DNA from: Octopus vulgaris | Lineage: Eukaryota | Assembly (NCBI GenBank): GCA_951406725.2 | Contig: OX597840.1 | Coordinates: forward strand, 1,178,001-1,242,000 | DNA length: 64,000 nucleotides | Direction: 5' to 3' | Shown: positions 17,966-64,000 of the stretch, piece after piece | How the letters are laid out: each line of letters opens with the position of its first letter | How positions within the stretch are numbered: position 1 is the stretch's first letter | The notes under the pieces: generated by a model | Databases searched by the model: none | What the model was told of the DNA's origin: nothing | Seen by the model: only the letters and a program-made list of their open reading frames with translations | Made by a program: the position numbers and the translations under genes

Positions 17966-18382
17966 CTTTTACTCTTTTACTTGTTTCAGGCATTTGACTG
18001 CGGCCATGCTGGAGCAACGCCTTCAATCGAGCAACTCGACCCCAGGACTTATTTTTTGTAAGCCCAGTACTTATTCTATCGGACTCTTTTGCCGAACCGC
18101 TAAGTAACGGGGACATAAACACACCAGCATCGGTTGTCAAGCAATTCTTGGGGGACAAACACAGACACACAAACACACACACACACACACACACACACAT
18201 TTATATATACATATATACGACGTGCTTCTTTCAGTTTCCGTCTACCAAATCCACTCACAAGGCTTTGGTGGCCCGAGGCTATAGTAGAAGACACTTGCCC
18301 AAGGTGCCACGCAGTGGGACTGAACCCGGAACCATGTGGTTGGTAAACAAGCTACTTACCACACAGCCACTCCTGCGCCTAT
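17966..18382 (-). mobile_element. SINE family A, full length
   Basis: A box TGGCTGTGTGG, B box GGTTCAGTCCC, CCTTGGGCAAG core, and tail ending GAAACAAGTAAAAGAG. Confidence 0.92.
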
Positions 18383-22725: not shown

Positions 22726-22868
22726 TACGACGGGCTTCTTTCAGTTTCCGTCTACCAAATTCACTCACAAGGCTTTGGTCGGCCCGAGGCTATAGTAGAA
22801 GACACTTTCCCAAGGTGCCACCCAGTGGGACTGAACCTGGAACCATGTGGTCGGTAGACAAGCTACTT
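22480..22868 (-). mobile_element. SINE family A, 3' part (its 5' head is displaced to 25101-25143 by an insertion)
   Basis: The consensus breaks after CAAGCTACTT (22859-22868) and resumes at 25108 CAAGCTACTTACCACACAGCCACTCCTGCGCCT. Confidence 0.9.
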
Positions 22869-25100
22869 TATTTCAAAACATTTGCCATAAAGGCAGTACA
22901 CAGATTAAGTTAGCTTTGCGGGCTGGATGAGGACATTAATGAGGTGAATGATAATGAAAGAAAGATGATAAGGATGGGAGAAGACAGAAAGCGCCCGCCG
23001 ACTTTTGCTTCTCTAAAACATTGTTCTTTTTAAAAAGATTAACACAAAACGAGGTATTAAACCTCTTACAATTTTCCCAATTTTGGGCTTAGTAGTCCAT
23101 TATTAATACAAAACGAGGTATTAATCCTCTTACAATTTTTCAATTTTTGGACTTAAGTCCATTACTAATAATACATATCGTCCTCGAAATAGCTTGTGCC
23201 CGCGCCCTCCACCATCAACCACGCCTCCCTCAGAACGTAGTCAAGTTCCGAGTTCGCATCGCCCGGGACCAAGTTATAGTCTTCATTGAGCTCCTTTAGC
23301 CCTAGCGTCACGTCGAACGCCACGGCCTCCATAGCTACCTGCGGAGGCCATTCGGGGTCCTGTGTGAAGGCTAAAGGTGCTCCCTTGTAGTGCTCTTCCA
23401 TCACTTTTTCAATTTCTCCTCCTCTATAGAAGAGAACCAATACATTCAGTTCTTTCGTTGGCGGCACAGTTTCCGTCAACGGTATTCCTTCTCTTGTCGG
23501 TGGCACAACCCCAACCGACGTAGTTCCGCGACATTCCGGTGCCACACTGACAGCCGGCAACGTCCCGTTTTTCTTCCTCTTTTTCTTTTTTTTCCCTTTT
23601 CAACTGAGGGAGGGTGCGTCTCCTCCGTGGCTGGAAGATTCGCCCTCCTCTCCTCATCCCTATTATCCTTTGGTGAGCACCCATTGTTGCTCACCTTCCT
23701 CTTTCGGCCTCTGCTTGAGGAGTCCTCTGCTTTCTCGGCCGTTATCGTTCCCTCTTCTAGAGGGGTTTTACTTAACTGTTCCGGGATCCTATTTTGTTCC
23801 CGAGGACAGTTCTTCTTTATGTGGCCGGACTCCAAGCACCGATGACACTTAGGGGGCGACCCTCAAGCATCACCGGGTACCTGCACCCGGCCATTTTCAA
23901 AAAATCTGGAAAAACCAGATTGGCTGATTGGGTCCACAGGGTCAAAACTGCTTTCGAGCCAACCCAAGCAGCCGCAGGAAGAACTTTTACATTGAGGAGC
24001 TTAGTTTCGCTGTCACCCAGACCCCGGCGGATAGTCTCCTCTATCCACTCGGGTTCTATGTCGGGTGGCAGTCCGCAGATCCAAGCTTTCATTAATTTCT
24101 TTTTTTTGTAAGTGGGCAGGAATAAGATTTCCTTACCCTCCAAGGGTTCGCTAGCAAATTTGCAAGCCTCTTCAGGGGTGTCAAACAGCAACCACACCGT
24201 TCCATATTTGACACCCCTGGAAATGAATTTAATTGTTGGCAAATACTCCTCCAACTCCTCCTCAATTGCCGTCTTTTCGAATAGGGCGATGGTGTCAAGT
24301 GCCTTGGAGTAGGTTCTCAACACCACCGTCCTATCTTCACGGTCCTTCAACCACTTTTTGGGTGGTATGATTTCCCACTCCAAAACTTTGTTATTTTTCA
24401 TTGCCATGTTTTTTAAAAAATATATTCAAATTAGACTCAAAAGCAGGAAGAAAAAAGTTCAAAAGTCTAAATAAATTTGATAGATTTTTGAAAAAACAAA
24501 AAGGAGAAAGCACAACAGAAGGGAAGAAATTAACGGAAAGTCGCAATAAAGAAAAAACAAAGGGGGGGGGGGGGTAAATGAAGTTCAAAAGAAAGTTAAT
24601 AAACAGAAAAAACACAGCAAAAATATTCTGCGGTACTCCCGGCCTGGGTTGAACCTTGAACGCCTCAACTGCAACACAACCTCCACAAAAATGGGTCCGA
24701 AAGGTAATCCAATAGTGGCTTATTTTTATACTTTTCTTGCGAAGTACTCTGACAAGGGAATAAATTCAGCAAACTCAAACACAGCACTGGTTACTGCCAA
24801 CGGTAATTTTAACAGTAACTGTATTGAATCCTGAGTATACGCCCCTCCACTGTTTTTTTCTTTTTTTTTTTCAATGAACACAAAAACGGCAGCCGCCTAG
24901 CGCAGGCGAAATTGTCTCAGAGTTGGACACAACCTACTGAAATAATAATTGGCACGCAATAAATTATGCCCAACTCACAATAAACAAAATCACTTACCTC
25001 GACAACTTTCCGTTTTTGGTCTTTTTTCTTTAGTTGGACAGAGCTTGTTACTCACGTCCGCTCTAGCTCAACAAGAAGCAACCGACTAACTGCGCATGTC
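22869..25100 (-). mobile_element. ORF1-only (HAL1-like) Tx1/L1-type non-LTR retroelement, ~2.2 kb
   Basis: Flanked by duplicated CAAGCTACTT. ~690-bp 5' UTR, one gag-like ORF1, ~300-bp 3' UTR ending in GAAATAA. No endonuclease or RT. Confidence 0.8.
23165..24407 (-). pseudogene. LINE ORF1 (gag-like, CCHC zinc knuckle), broken by two single-base deletions
   Basis: ORFs 23817-24407, 23476-23835 and 23165-23560 join to ~414 aa. Knuckle CHRCLESGHIKKNC (CX2CX4HX4C); RRM-like GTVWLLF and ICGLPP segments. Confidence 0.8.
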
Positions 25101-26729
25101 TGGTTAGCAAGCTACTTACCACACAGCCACTCCTGCGCCTATAGTTCACTTACGCGAAATATGTCCAAGCAGTTTTGTTAAAGTTGGCAAAAACTATGGT
25201 CTCCATAACTGTAATTTTATAATTGGTTGTAACCAAAATAATTCTAATTTTATAATTGGTTCTAACCAAAATAATTCTAACCAAAATAATTGAAATAACC
25301 AAAATTCTTCGAAAAAATTCTAGGAAAGACGATTAAGGTCACGAGACTTAGATCTATTTCAGAGGTTGGCAAAATGATAAATCTCGTTGGTTGCTGGGGT
25401 ACAGAGTATTTTAGATTGAACGATTAACAAATGCTACACATGGCTGTACACAACAACCTTAAATAAAACTTGGCTCGCCAATACAACTATTGACATGTTT
25501 TATATAGGAAATTCCTATAAGCCGCAGAGTGTCTGTTTTTGCTGCTACCATTCTCCTCCTCGTACTACCATCTGGTTCGCCTACTACCACTTTTATGAAC
25601 CAGCCATCAATTCTATCTACAAATTAGAAAACGAAATTTTATACCATTTCATTTCCATAAGAAAAATATGTGAACTTCTAGAATTTATATTATTAGAGCA
25701 CAGTTCAATTTAATTTATTTCAAAATTTTTTCCCATTTTGTTTCCGTATGAGGAGGTTGTCATAATATGATTGAAACCGGTAGCTGCTTAGGTAAAAGTG
25801 TACGTATCAATTTTCTGTGTTCTCTGAGCAGTTTCTTATTTCAGAAAAATATCTATATATAAATCAAATTTGAAATGACATAAATCATGTTACAAATGTC
25901 TTAAATCACCTGCGGCAGATATGAAAGGAAGCATTGAGGGTTACGAGAAGGAAGTCCTCATATAGATAAAGAATTCATGAACCAGTTTCGTTTCCATGTC
26001 CATCAAAAACTTGCAAGTCATGTGGATTGAAATGGCAATTGAGTATTCGTAATAAACAAAAGTAAAACAGAGCTAATACTGAAATAAGATATTAATGCTG
26101 TATATAGGATCAGCTTTTCAAACGCCTTTCAGGGCTCAAATATAATTTAAGATCTCGTGCTAGGAAGGACAATAGCGGGTAAAAGTGGTCAGGCTCCACG
26201 AGGAGCAGACCGCCGCCATATGTATATTCAGAAACAGCTGGAAACGACTTTCCTGGTGTTAAACAGCACCAACATCCGTCGCATCCAGAACTTCCACAGT
26301 ATTTTGGCAAATAGTCTTTATTTTAAAGTACAGTTAATGAATATCTCTCTTTGAGAGATTTAGAAATAATAATGTTTCTGTTTATTAGACCAGTAACTGT
26401 TTGTCACTTTGAATATTATATATTTTCGACCGTGAATATGGCAGCGGCGTCTAGCCGAACAGGTAGTCTGTGCAGATACAAGCGCAATAACCCAGAAACT
26501 GGCCCACAGATGTTACTTTGTGCTGGATAGGGGTGAGCTCCCCTGTTCGAAAATGTAAGGCCGCAGATATTGTGTTCTTTACCCAGCTGAAAACGGCGTT
26601 TACTGGGGCTAAAACAACAGTAACATTTATCCCTTCCGGGACCGCCATATTATGTTGGCAAATATTCTTTACTTTAATGTACTGTTACTGAATATCTCTC
26701 TTTGAGAGATTCAGAAATAATAACGTTTA

Positions 26730-27934: not shown

Positions 27935-28637
27935 TTACTTGTTCCAGTAATTTGACTGCGGCCATGCTGGAGCACCGCCTTTAGTCGAGCAAATCGACCC
28001 CGGGACTTATTCTTTGTAAGCCCAGTACTTATTCTATCGGTCTCTTTTTGCCGAACCGCTAAGTGACGGGGATGTAAACACACCAGCACACAAACACACA
28101 CACCTACATATATATATACATATATACGACAGGCTTCTTTCAGTTTCCGTCTACCAAATCCACTCACAAGGCTTTGGTCGGCCCGAGGCTATAGTAGAAG
28201 ACACTTGCCCAAGGTGCCACGCAGTGGGACTGAACCCGGAACCATGTGGTTGGTAGACAAGCTACTTACCACACAGCCACTCCTACACCTATATATATAC
28301 GATGGGCTTCTTTCAGTTTCCGTCTACCAAATCCACTCACAAGGCTTTGGTCGGCCCGAGGCTATAGTAGAAGACACTTGCCCAAGGTGCCACGCAGTGG
28401 GACTGAACCCGGAACCATGTGGTTGGTAGACAAGCTACTTACCACACAGCCACTCCTACACCTATATATATACGATGGGCTTCTTTCAGTTTCCGTCTAC
28501 CAAATCCACTCACAAGGCTTTGGTCGGCCCGAGGCTATAGTAGAAGACACTTGCCCAAGGTGCCACGCAGTGGGACTGAACCCGGAACCATGTGGTTGGT
28601 AGACAAGCTACTTACCACACAGCCACTCCTGCGCCTA
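27935..28637 (-). mobile_element. SINE family A with three tandem 173-bp head units
   Basis: Near-identical units with period 173 (ORF starts at 28246 and 28419). Confidence 0.93.
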
Positions 28638-28659
28638 TATCCACTCCTGCGCCTGAATA

Positions 28660-41589: not shown

Positions 41590-42780
41590 TGCCGCGGTTT
41601 CTCTCAGCCTCCACGAGCAGTGGATCACCAACCACTTTCTTACTCTCTTGCCTTTCCCTAGCTGTTACACGTAGTCGAGGAGAATCCGCTCTAATGTGGC
41701 CTTTCGGGTCACATTTATACCACCGCGGAATGCTCCCTTCCACTCCTTCCATCTGCGACCGTGATTGTCTCCACCATACTTTCAACAACTTCTGGATTAA
41801 TCTGTACCACCATGTTCAGGCTCTGCTCTTGCCAGGTTCTGCAGGGTGTTTTTGATAGCCTGCAGGACCACCACCTTTTTTCCTTGCCTAGCAGAATGGC
41901 AGCCACTAGCCGGGCTACATTCCCTTCTGGGGGTATGCTTTCTACCCTAACCCTGGAAGCACGTCTCCCAAGGTATACGGTAGAAGCATGGACGGCGGCG
42001 AGCTGGCAGAAACATTAGCACGCCAGGCGAAATGCGTAGCCGTATTTCGTCTGTCGTTACGTTGTGAGTTCAAATTCCGCCGAGGTCGACTTTGCCTTTC
42101 ATCCTTTCGGGGTCGATAAATTAAGTACCAGTTACGAAGTGGGGTCGATATAATCGACTCAATACCTATGTCTGTCTTTGTTTGTCCCCTCTATGTTTAG
42201 TCCCTTGTGGGTAATAAAGAAATAAGTATACGGTAGAAGCACCACACAATGGTGTGGCTGACTGGCGGTAGCTATCTCTCGAAACTGCACTTCTACCGTT
42301 CCCTACTTTCTTCCCCTGGCATGGTAGGGCTTCTCTTGCGAGACTGGCCTCAATCCCTTTTCAACTTGTGCTTACGCTACCACTTCTATTTTTCTTGTTG
42401 CCACCGCGAATGTCCTGTAATCAATCGTTCTCTCTTCCTTATCCTTTAACACTTCTTTAGTGGGGGGAACACTTTCACATCATTCTCCTCCCTTTAAATA
42501 TTTTCTTCGACTTACACAACTCTTTCCTTTGTATGTCTCTGCTTTTCCTCTTTGCCGCTCCAGCATAATTCCTTGTTTCTATTACTGTGTCAACCTTCTT
42601 CAAATATTTCACCATTTCTTTCTCAGACGACACAAATTCCGAAGAAGAATAATTTAAACCCTCACAACTCATCTCACGACGCCCCTCCCTAAACAAGAGG
42701 GAAAACGTCGCACCGCCAAGACAACCAAAACACGTGTGTTATTCACAAAAACAGCAACCGAAATAAACAAACCGCTCTAC
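41590..42780 (-). mobile_element. Older, decayed relative of the ORF1 retroelement at 22869-25100
   Basis: VPPTKEVLKDKEERTIDYRT..RGRK*GTVEVQF aligns with IIPPKKWLKDREDRTVVLRT..RGVKYGTVWLLF. Decayed knuckle WYKCDPKGHIRADSP. 5' end abuts a SINE-A head at 42781-42822. Confidence 0.78.
41989..42225 (+). mobile_element. SINE family B with perfect 16-bp TSD, nested in the ORF1 relic
   Basis: GTATACGGTAGAAGCA at 41973-41988 and 42226-42241. Confidence 0.95.
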
Positions 42781-43115
42781 CGGAAGCAAGCTTCTTACTA
42801 CACAACCACAACTGTGCCTATAATATTTTCTATTTTAGGGTTTCCTGGTATCTAAGTTAGGTAGCAATCAGCCCCTTTCGCTATCATTCTCAGGGCACTT
42901 ATGACAACAGAAAAAATTTGAGGGATGGATTAGTCGCTTACATCGGCACCAGTACACAGCTGGTATTTTTTTTCAATGAAGAAAAGAGAATGGAACGTAT
43001 AGTCGCCTTCGGTTGCATTTGAACTCGGAGGATAAAGAGTCGAAACGAAAGCCATCAGTTTATTTTGTACAGCGTTCTAAAGGTTCTGCCATCTCGCAAC
43101 GTTGATACAATTAAT

Positions 43116-53040: not shown

Positions 53041-53197
53041 TTCCGGAAACGAAACGGGAAGGAGTCAACACGATTGGTGAAAGAACTTCCTCTATATGCA
53101 GCAGCCCAGAATATGTGTGATTGAAGAGTGGAACAAGAAAGGTGCTTACCAATGAGTTACACACGAGGCACAAAATACACATTATATGCAAACTTAT

Positions 53198-53367
53198 AGG
53201 CGTAGGAGTGGCTTTGTGGTAAGTAGCTTGCTTACGAACCACATGGTTTCAGGTTCAGTCCCACTGCGTGGAACCTTGGGCAGGTGTCTTCTACTATAGA
53301 CTCGGGCCGACCAAAGCCTTGTGAGTGGATTTGGTAGACAGAAACTGAAAGAAGCCCGTCGTATATA

Positions 53368-53417
<50 letters not shown>

Positions 53418-53620
53418 TGTGTGTTGTGTTTGACCCCCAACATCGCTTGACAACCGATGCTGGTGTGTTTACGTCCCCGTAACTTAGCGGTTCGGCAGAA
53501 GACACCGATAGAATAGGTACTTGGCTTGCAAAGAATAAGTCTCGGGGTCGATTTACTCGACTAAAGGTGGTGCTCCAGCATGGCCACAGTCAAATGACTG
53601 AAACAAGTAAATGAGTAAAC
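53198..53620 (+). mobile_element. SINE family A, full length
   Basis: Head, core, TA tract and tail. Confidence 0.92.
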
Positions 53621-63374: not shown

Positions 63375-63773
63375 ACTCTTTTCTCTCTTTCTTGTTTCAG
63401 TCATTTGACTGCGGCCATGCTGGAGTACCACCTTTAGTCGAATCAAATCGACCCCAGCACTTATTCTTTGTAAGCCTAGTACTTATTCTATAGGCCTCTT
63501 TTGTCGAACCACTAAATTACGGGGACGCAAACACACCAGCATCGGTTGTCAAGCGATGTTGGGGGGACAAACACAGACACACAACATACACACACACATA
63601 TATATATACGACGGGCTTCTTTCTGTTTCCGTCTACCAAATCCACTCAGAAGGCTTTGGTCGGCCCGGGGCTATAGTAGAAGACACTTGCCCAAGGTGTC
63701 ACGCAGTGGGAATGATCCCGGAACCATGTGGTTGGTAAGCAAGCTACTTACCACACAGCCACTCCTGCGCCTA
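63375..63773 (-). mobile_element. SINE family A, full length
   Basis: Head, core and tail as in the other copies. Confidence 0.92.
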
Positions 63774-64000
63774 TTCGCACAGCTAAGACAACATAGCAAA
63801 AATGCCATCAATTCTCAAATAATTATATTTTCTGAAGTCTAGCAATACTGACGCAATCATATAGTTTCATTTCATGCAATTCTTTTCAAGATCTCACCAC
63901 ATTGGAAGAGATACGTTGATGAATATTTCTTAAAACATGTAAGCCCTTACGAAGCAGTTCTATAATCAAAGCAATATACTCTTTACTCTTACTCTTTTAC

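Follow-up and report, generated by a model that had tools for sequence, protein, structure and literature searches.

Retrotransposons that keep only the first open reading frame (ORF1) of a long interspersed nuclear element (LINE) are known as derivatives of L1, Jockey and CR1, and the Tx1 clade is not named as a source in the accessible portions of the papers concerned (PMC5786205, PMC5753468, PMC3627910); the papers cited below are likewise represented by such portions. LINEs of the Tx1 clade are found in repeats, with Xenopus Tx1 in Tx1D, Keno in U2, the crocodilian Tx1-Mar in Mariner-N4_AMi, Tx1-9_AMi in Harbinger, and Tx1-8_Crp and Tx1-4_AMi in long terminal repeat (LTR) elements (PMC4494074). 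For SART1Bm and R1Bm it was proposed that RNA of the 3′ untranslated region (UTR), or read-through RNA, pairs with the target DNA (PMC7265360), and a 2026 octopus repeat annotation reports 13 recently active L1-Tx1 families (PMC13282606). Here we describe an insert in a 64,000-nucleotide stretch of Octopus vulgaris DNA (contig OX597840.1, positions 1,178,001 to 1,242,000; the window, whose own numbering is used below). With a probability of roughly 0.88, we read this insert as an ORF1-only retrotransposon, family A, which sits at a fixed base in the head of a short interspersed nuclear element (SINE) and was likely copied in trans by the endonuclease (EN) and the reverse transcriptase (RT) of a co-resident full-length L1/Tx1-type LINE.

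A fixed insertion site in the SINE head

Three intact copies of the SINE in the window (about 17972-18382, 53195-53615 and 63383-63774) run uninterrupted through the insertion point, and therefore the host SINE is split between its A-box-like and B-box-like motifs, as the preliminary description had claimed. Both motifs are presumed, matched by eye to the box consensus, and on that reading they are spaced by 43 nt; neither ARAGORN nor Rfam gave a tRNA match for the SINE head. Insert and host SINE share the minus-strand orientation, and the co-oriented insert first put at 2.2 kb, with a 5′ UTR, one knuckle-bearing ORF and a 3′ UTR, measures 2,239 bp. It is neither an LTR element nor an endogenous virus, since self-comparison found no terminal repeats in it and its ORF is homologous to LINE ORF1. 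The 10-bp duplication noted earlier is exact: comparison by identity within the window finds CAAGCTACTT at 22859-22868 and 25108-25117. Exact identity ends at 10 bp, and extension scores 13/16 and 13/17. The features of the locus, from the 5′ side, are as follows.

25118..25142, minus strand: 5′ head of the host SINE, resembling the intact window SINEs; A-box-like motif at 25119-25129 (box by eye)
25108..25117, minus strand: 5′ copy of the target-site duplication (TSD), AAGTAGCTTG; a variant TSD is mirrored on both sides in locus L019
25102..25107, minus strand: element-encoded 5′ end CTAACC, a second copy of the target bases that follow the TSD, by which the site is rebuilt (0/14 variants on the 5′ side; tandem stacks)
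22869..25107, minus strand: family A, an ORF1-only retroelement of 2239 bp (96-100% identity among 30 genomic copies)
24408..25101, minus strand: 5′ UTR, presumed internal promoter, with many runs of four or more T
23165..24407, minus strand: ORF1, 414 aa in open copies; this copy has two single-base shortfalls, at 23852-23856 and 23586-23593
23865..24362, minus strand: predicted tandem RNA-recognition motif (RRM) region, about residues 16-181 (AlphaFold2 and Foldseek)
23806..23847, minus strand: CX2CX4HX4C zinc knuckle
22869..23164, minus strand: 3′ UTR with an 87% direct repeat (23038-23108 / 23102-23170) and no poly(A), by sequence comparison
22907..22916, minus strand: anti-target motif (AAGCTAACTT), the reverse complement of the TSD plus one extra base
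22883..22895, minus strand: 4-bp tail hairpin TGCC-N5-GGCA, common to the helper LINE (covariation across tails)
22859..22868, minus strand: 3′ copy of the TSD (duplication)
22827-22837, minus strand: B-box-like motif in the host SINE body (by eye)
22805-22815, minus strand: CORE/Ceph-like CCTTGGGAAAG in the host SINE body (motif named in PMC5786205)
22480..22858, minus strand: host SINE body with a AGTAAAAG-type tail (comparison of window SINEs)

From the 2.8-Gb assembly we retrieved 30 family-A loci, the best 40 of 2,076 candidates having been scored. The family is young, with a mean divergence of 0.7% between inserts, and has the same 5′ end in 27 and the same 3′ end in all 30 copies. Every copy terminates at the target, 28 before the SINE body and two before another element; 26 start in the SINE head and four right behind a sister element. 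Because these loci are the best matches, searches independent of the flanks were added. The A-type tail gave 211 genomic matches, which include a chimeric family with an identical tail, and the target came next in 100/100 among the matches listed. The exact junction of tail and target, AAATAAAGTAGCTTGCT, occurs 1,226 times, against once for a reversed control. ORF2 follows the family-A ORF1 in none of the 30 loci, nor does it lie within about 2 kb in any of 30 further loci picked with a divergent ORF1 query, 24 of which have tail and target 1.2-1.5 kb past the ORF1 start. Thus neither an ORF2 behind this ORF1 nor random flanks, the two observations that the preliminary description regarded as fatal to its reading, turned up in these samples.

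One could still imagine a single insertion after which the composite of SINE, insert and SINE was amplified as a whole, and the constant SINE family, base and orientation in every copy would fit such a history. It is, however, refuted by the comparison of the flanks: in 25 copies divergence averages 8.2% between SINE bodies as against 0.7% between inserts, so the flanks are about 11 times more diverged, and the two distances are uncorrelated (Mantel p 0.22). Sister inserts moreover sit in SINE variants that differ by 12% (L001/L010) and 13% (L009/L002), locus L019 carries its variant TSD on both sides of the insert, and 5′-truncated copies and mixed stacks are present. We give this history practically no weight; as far as sequences can tell, the data show independent insertions into different SINE copies.

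The junctions also fix the length of the TSD. Across 48 pairs of junctions, from which rows with indels at the junction were excluded, target variants at positions 11-16 were copied to the 5′ side in 0/14 cases and those within positions 1-10 in 1/2. Because the former are not copied, the TSD is 9-10 bp long and CTAAC(C) is part of the element. A TSD of 16-17 bp had to be given up, and the imperfect extension to about 17 bp, previously taken as part of the duplication, is really the target-like 5′ end of the element. Since this end rebuilds the target, tandem stacks arise; tandem junctions account for nine of the 11 family-A 5′ ends whose position -13 lacks the usual G. The 5′-truncated copies keep intact 3′ junctions, as expected under target-primed reverse transcription.

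The target is abundant, with 59,332 exact occurrences of a 30-mer taken from the intact site, so that SINE sites overall number at least as many. By hand count the CTAAC variant accounts for about 58 among the first 100 intact sites. Elements insert into both variants, and a preference for CTAAC is not established given its share among intact sites. The SINE ends lead into AGTAAAAG-type repeats and not into the target, in 13 window matches as well as 25 host copies. A tail shared by SINE and LINE was considered and dropped (best local scores P 0.42 and 0.29 versus shuffles); the loose CAAAT..TGAAA resemblance between SINE end and LINE tail exists by eye only, and the shuffle test does not support it. 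Elsewhere in the window, at 28258-28639, the first ~173 bases of the SINE stand in three head-to-tail copies.

A co-resident LINE and the ORF1-only families

Behind one family-A copy we found a 5,441-bp element with Exo_endo_phos, RVT_1 and zf-RVT domains (Pfam), that is, an autonomous EN-RT LINE of the kind that had been anticipated as a partner sharing tail and target. All 30 retrieved copies terminate at the same SINE site, and its tail has 115 matches, 98/100 of them at the target among the matches listed. Its ORF2 (1,133 aa) is open in 8/22 copies, and ORF1 and ORF2 are both open in 2/22. The closest solved structure to ORF2 is L1 ORF2p (E 8e-67, versus 6e-20 for R2), and the nearest named protein to the RT region, at 64%, comes from Argonauta hians. 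The LINE has the traits of Tx1 elements, namely an L1-like ORF2 with an apurinic/apyrimidinic endonuclease (APE), an RT and a C-terminal zinc motif, a type I ORF1 and target specificity; no labelled Tx1 element occurs among the 120 homologs listed or in the six clusters. The 4-bp tail hairpin is paired in 93.8% of the cells across 28 tails, with five doubly changed cells, and its pairing exceeds 500/500 shuffles and all slid controls. As the tails are related by descent, we take this covariation as support and not as a probability. The 5.44-kb LINE is thus the likely helper of family A, and from the shared site and tail, the young age and the mixed stacks we infer that its ORF2 mobilises family A in trans.

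Family A is not alone. Contig 1 supplied 70 junction loci, namely the 30 that head the list and the next 40 in order, with four already sampled skipped and tandem neighbours merged; a hand tally of them gave 38 ORF1-only elements, 12 RT-bearing ones and 20 that are short or unclassified. In a tree of the ORF1 N-terminal part (quick search, midpoint root), one branch with a Shimodaira–Hasegawa-like approximate likelihood ratio support (SH-aLRT) of 100 splits 29 rows of the half-element type from four autonomous rows, and the former make up about ten lineages. Judged by this tree, about ten diverged ORF1-only families are a separate ORF1 lineage.

The families also share stacks. Family A stands before the helper at L035, a copy of a second ORF1-only family, B, is enclosed by two helpers at L146, and at L031 (C5) at least five family-B copies are followed by one of family A at ~2-kb spacing. 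A further array, G000:C1:223694761-223706766, has seven junctions, again at ~2-kb spacing. Three loci (L192, L198, L199) hold a chimeric ORF1-only family with a B-type N-terminal half and an A-type C-terminal half and tail, which suggests recombination between passenger families; L200, L204 and L205 have 5′ end and tail in common with it. Locus L086 (G000:C1:39263471-39263591) holds a 95-bp element, at the target and with a TSD, that joins the first ~53 to the last ~42 bases of family A and by its sequence is a minimal non-coding derivative of family A. At L151 (G000:C1:111116887-111116972) two back-to-back tails lie between two inverted SINE bodies. The window itself contains an old, degraded relative at 41675-42800 (minus strand), which begins at the same position in another SINE head; its ORF1 remnants match the helper ORF1 (E 3e-11) and form a long branch among the autonomous rows. 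In run X1, whose nature as RNA is a guess, one contig of 2,083 nt covers window positions 23041-25110, almost all of the element, and leaves the unique flank uncovered.

The ORF1 protein and its reading frame

Compared with Pfam, the three ORF pieces of this copy gave zf-CCHC as the sole match (E 0.0016, short of the curated threshold) and neither an EN nor an RT family, which agrees with the CX2CX4HX4C knuckle and the lack of EN and RT first reported. Transposase_22 was found by Pfam neither in the family-A ORF1 nor in the helper, so that in place of the mammalian-type L1 with a type II ORF1 that strictly defines HAL1 there is a predicted tandem RRM plus CCHC. AlphaFold2 (15-row alignment) returned a predicted local distance difference test score (pLDDT) of 71-93 in blocks across about residues 11-190 and, at low confidence, a mean of 59 in the C-terminal half. 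The top Foldseek matches to this model are tandem-RRM proteins, with E from 6e-5 and low TM-scores, and an Atlas search returned CCHC and ZCCHC3-type RNA-binding clusters. According to these models the family-A ORF1 is a type I LINE ORF1 (RRM plus CCHC), predicted to bind RNA; this type and its tie to Tx1 are defined in PMC5203782. It is 29% identical to the helper ORF1 across 196 aa (E 1e-24), and the ORF first called gag-like is accordingly homologous to a LINE ORF1 and not a gag. The nearest named protein, at 64%, is from Octopus sinensis. Half-element ORF1s do enter gene catalogues: in another octopus they are listed as host 'uncharacterized proteins' (P0001, P0002), P0002 being an ORF1 start joined to an integrase-like piece. 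Between families A and B, the ratio of nonsynonymous to synonymous divergence (dN/dS) is 0.13 in the N-terminal RRM-knuckle part, at a dS of ~1.6 that is close to saturation, and 0.4-0.6 in the C-terminal half (simple counting). On this sequence comparison, purifying selection on the N-terminal domain is shown.

From the ATG at 24407 to the stop at 23165 this copy counts 1243 nt, two below the 414-aa frame. That frame is open in 7/30 family-A copies, which the earlier repair to ~414 aa matches exactly, and the idea of a protein-coding non-autonomous element holds as a trait of the ORF1-only family. The run at 23852-23856 has six bases in 13 copies, five in 16 and four in one. An inherited frameshifted subfamily was rejected: on a tree of 27 copies (three with other 5′ ends excluded) the short run takes 11 changes, versus 9.3 when shuffled, and being so scattered it is not an inherited state. 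Both frameshifts had been explained as single-base losses in homopolymers. For the first, the one long contig and high-depth short contigs from two runs have the 6-base run, and one short-read contig (depth 42, five other differences) spans it without the extra base; the A-run is masked in these contigs, which are not assignable to this locus. All in all, we consider the two frameshifts to be probably assembly errors.

Two other explanations concern the state of ORF1. The family could be ORF1-only as we propose, with this copy and about half of the others truly frameshifted and ORF1 supplied in trans; the shortened run in 17 copies and the depth-42 contig would be natural under it, and we hold it possible though rather doubtful. 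Its weak side is the scatter of the short run, implausible on branches of 0.1-0.3%, together with the 6-base run in the long and high-depth contigs and the helper copies, ~99% alike, which are frameshifted at a similar rate (14/22 ORF2s). More radical is the view that an autonomous LINE recently suffered an internal deletion and that ORF1 is a passive relic, in keeping with the homology of ORF1 and tail to those of the helper and with the frameshifts in most assembled copies. A mere 29% identity to the helper ORF1, a lineage of its own with about ten branches, the dN/dS of 0.13 and the 30 loci selected by ORF1, none with ORF2 within about 2 kb, make this very improbable.

A natural ORF1-only family mobilised by the helper LINE thus remains our preferred reading, and several points weigh against it. 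In the assembly 23/30 family-A copies are frameshifted, this one included. In the genome searches scoring was confined to the best 40-150 candidates, and of the 20 short or unclassified junctions among the 70, three resemble chance matches. Because only four autonomous ORF1s were sampled, a LINE with a half-type ORF1 could be missed. The sole blastn match between family A and the helper, their last 37 nt at 78% identity, is weak alone (E 0.036). The helper is assigned to Tx1 by its architecture rather than by its place among named references in a tree.

Proposed route and relation to described systems

Target-primed reverse transcription is the standard model for LINEs and underlies the route that we propose. 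Family-A RNA would be transcribed from a promoter in its own 5′ UTR, rather than from the RNA polymerase III promoter of the SINE, because of the T-runs and the displaced B box. Its ORF1 protein would coat the RNA in cis, and the helper ORF2, in trans, would bind the tail hairpin and nick the bottom strand at GGT^AAGTAG. Reverse transcription would then be primed at the RNA 3′ end, the top strand would be cut 9-10 nt downstream, and the CTAAC 5′ end of the RNA would restore the site, in front of which later elements could stack. The SINE, with at least 59,332 exact sites, may act as a safe landing pad.

The 3′ UTRs may contribute to the choice of site. In 5/6 autonomous tails tested the reverse complement of the TSD is present as 8-9 exact bases between -63 and -82; half-elements have 4-9 bases of it around -30 to -49. 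The motif exceeds shuffles at P <= 0.05 in 18/24 representative tails; family A itself does not reach that threshold (P 0.083, one bulge), and the 24 tails are not independent tests, owing to the common ancestry of the families and the palindromic core AGCT. All families with examined tails use one site. Since the motif persists in otherwise unalignable UTRs, selection on it is suggested, and its pairing partner could be read-through RNA or the target top strand. We propose only tentatively that the conserved AAGCUACU(U) in the 3′ UTR pairs in this way with the nicked SINE top strand or read-through RNA, thereby releasing the primer strand and fixing the site. If true, an APE-type LINE would recognise its target with the help of RNA, and this would have been retained through the three tiers of SINE, LINE and half-LINE.

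In the literature searched, which included few subscription papers and lay outside Repbase and Dfam, we did not find a SINE-targeting LINE with ORF1-only passengers, nor anything closer in the accessible parts of PMC4758252, PMC3706591 and PMC8869645. The words 'target', 'ORF1' and 'non-autonomous' are absent from the main text of PMC13282606, whose supplements may hold these families. As far as these sources go, the components (HAL1/HeT-A; Tx1 LINEs on transposons) are already known, and their combination with a SINE target was not found. The system would offer, within one genome, a young, apparently competent, single-base-specific LINE together with several natural passengers. It bears on why ORF1-only elements keep ORF1 for so long, on how an APE-type LINE attains near-absolute site specificity and on whether template RNA aids target recognition. 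Each insertion parts the promoter boxes of its SINE copy.

Family A has the traits of a non-autonomous LINE that retains ORF1: ORF1 only, homologous to that of the helper, a shared 3′ end and selection on ORF1. Like HAL1, HeT-A (Jockey) and Ag-Sponge (CR1), it combines a 5′ UTR, ORF1 only and a LINE 3′ part, and its ORF1 coding capacity was long kept with ORF2 presumably provided in trans. Unlike these, it has a type I ORF1 and not the mammalian Transposase_22 type, lacks poly(A), lives in an invertebrate and is strictly confined to a single site inside a SINE. With the Tx1-clade LINEs, as described in the portions cited, the helper shares APE-RT architecture, a multicopy element as target, TSDs and tandem insertions that sandwich a TSD; the target here is a tRNA-like SINE head, the specificity is near-absolute (98-100/100 among the matches listed), and the passengers, unlike those of such systems, are protein-coding. 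The RNA of SART1Bm and R1Bm corresponds to the top strand, its pairing partner being the primer (bottom) strand, whereas the motif described here complements the top strand or read-through RNA. The closest parallel to the passengers is SINEU-3 with Tx1-Mar (PMC4494074), likewise a non-autonomous passenger on the target of its helper and in tandem stacks; SINEU is non-coding with a snRNA head, while the passengers in octopus encode ORF1 and outnumber the helper by about 3 to 1. Taken together, 'safe harbour' targeting, known for rRNA genes, snRNA genes and DNA transposons, would thereby come to include a SINE.

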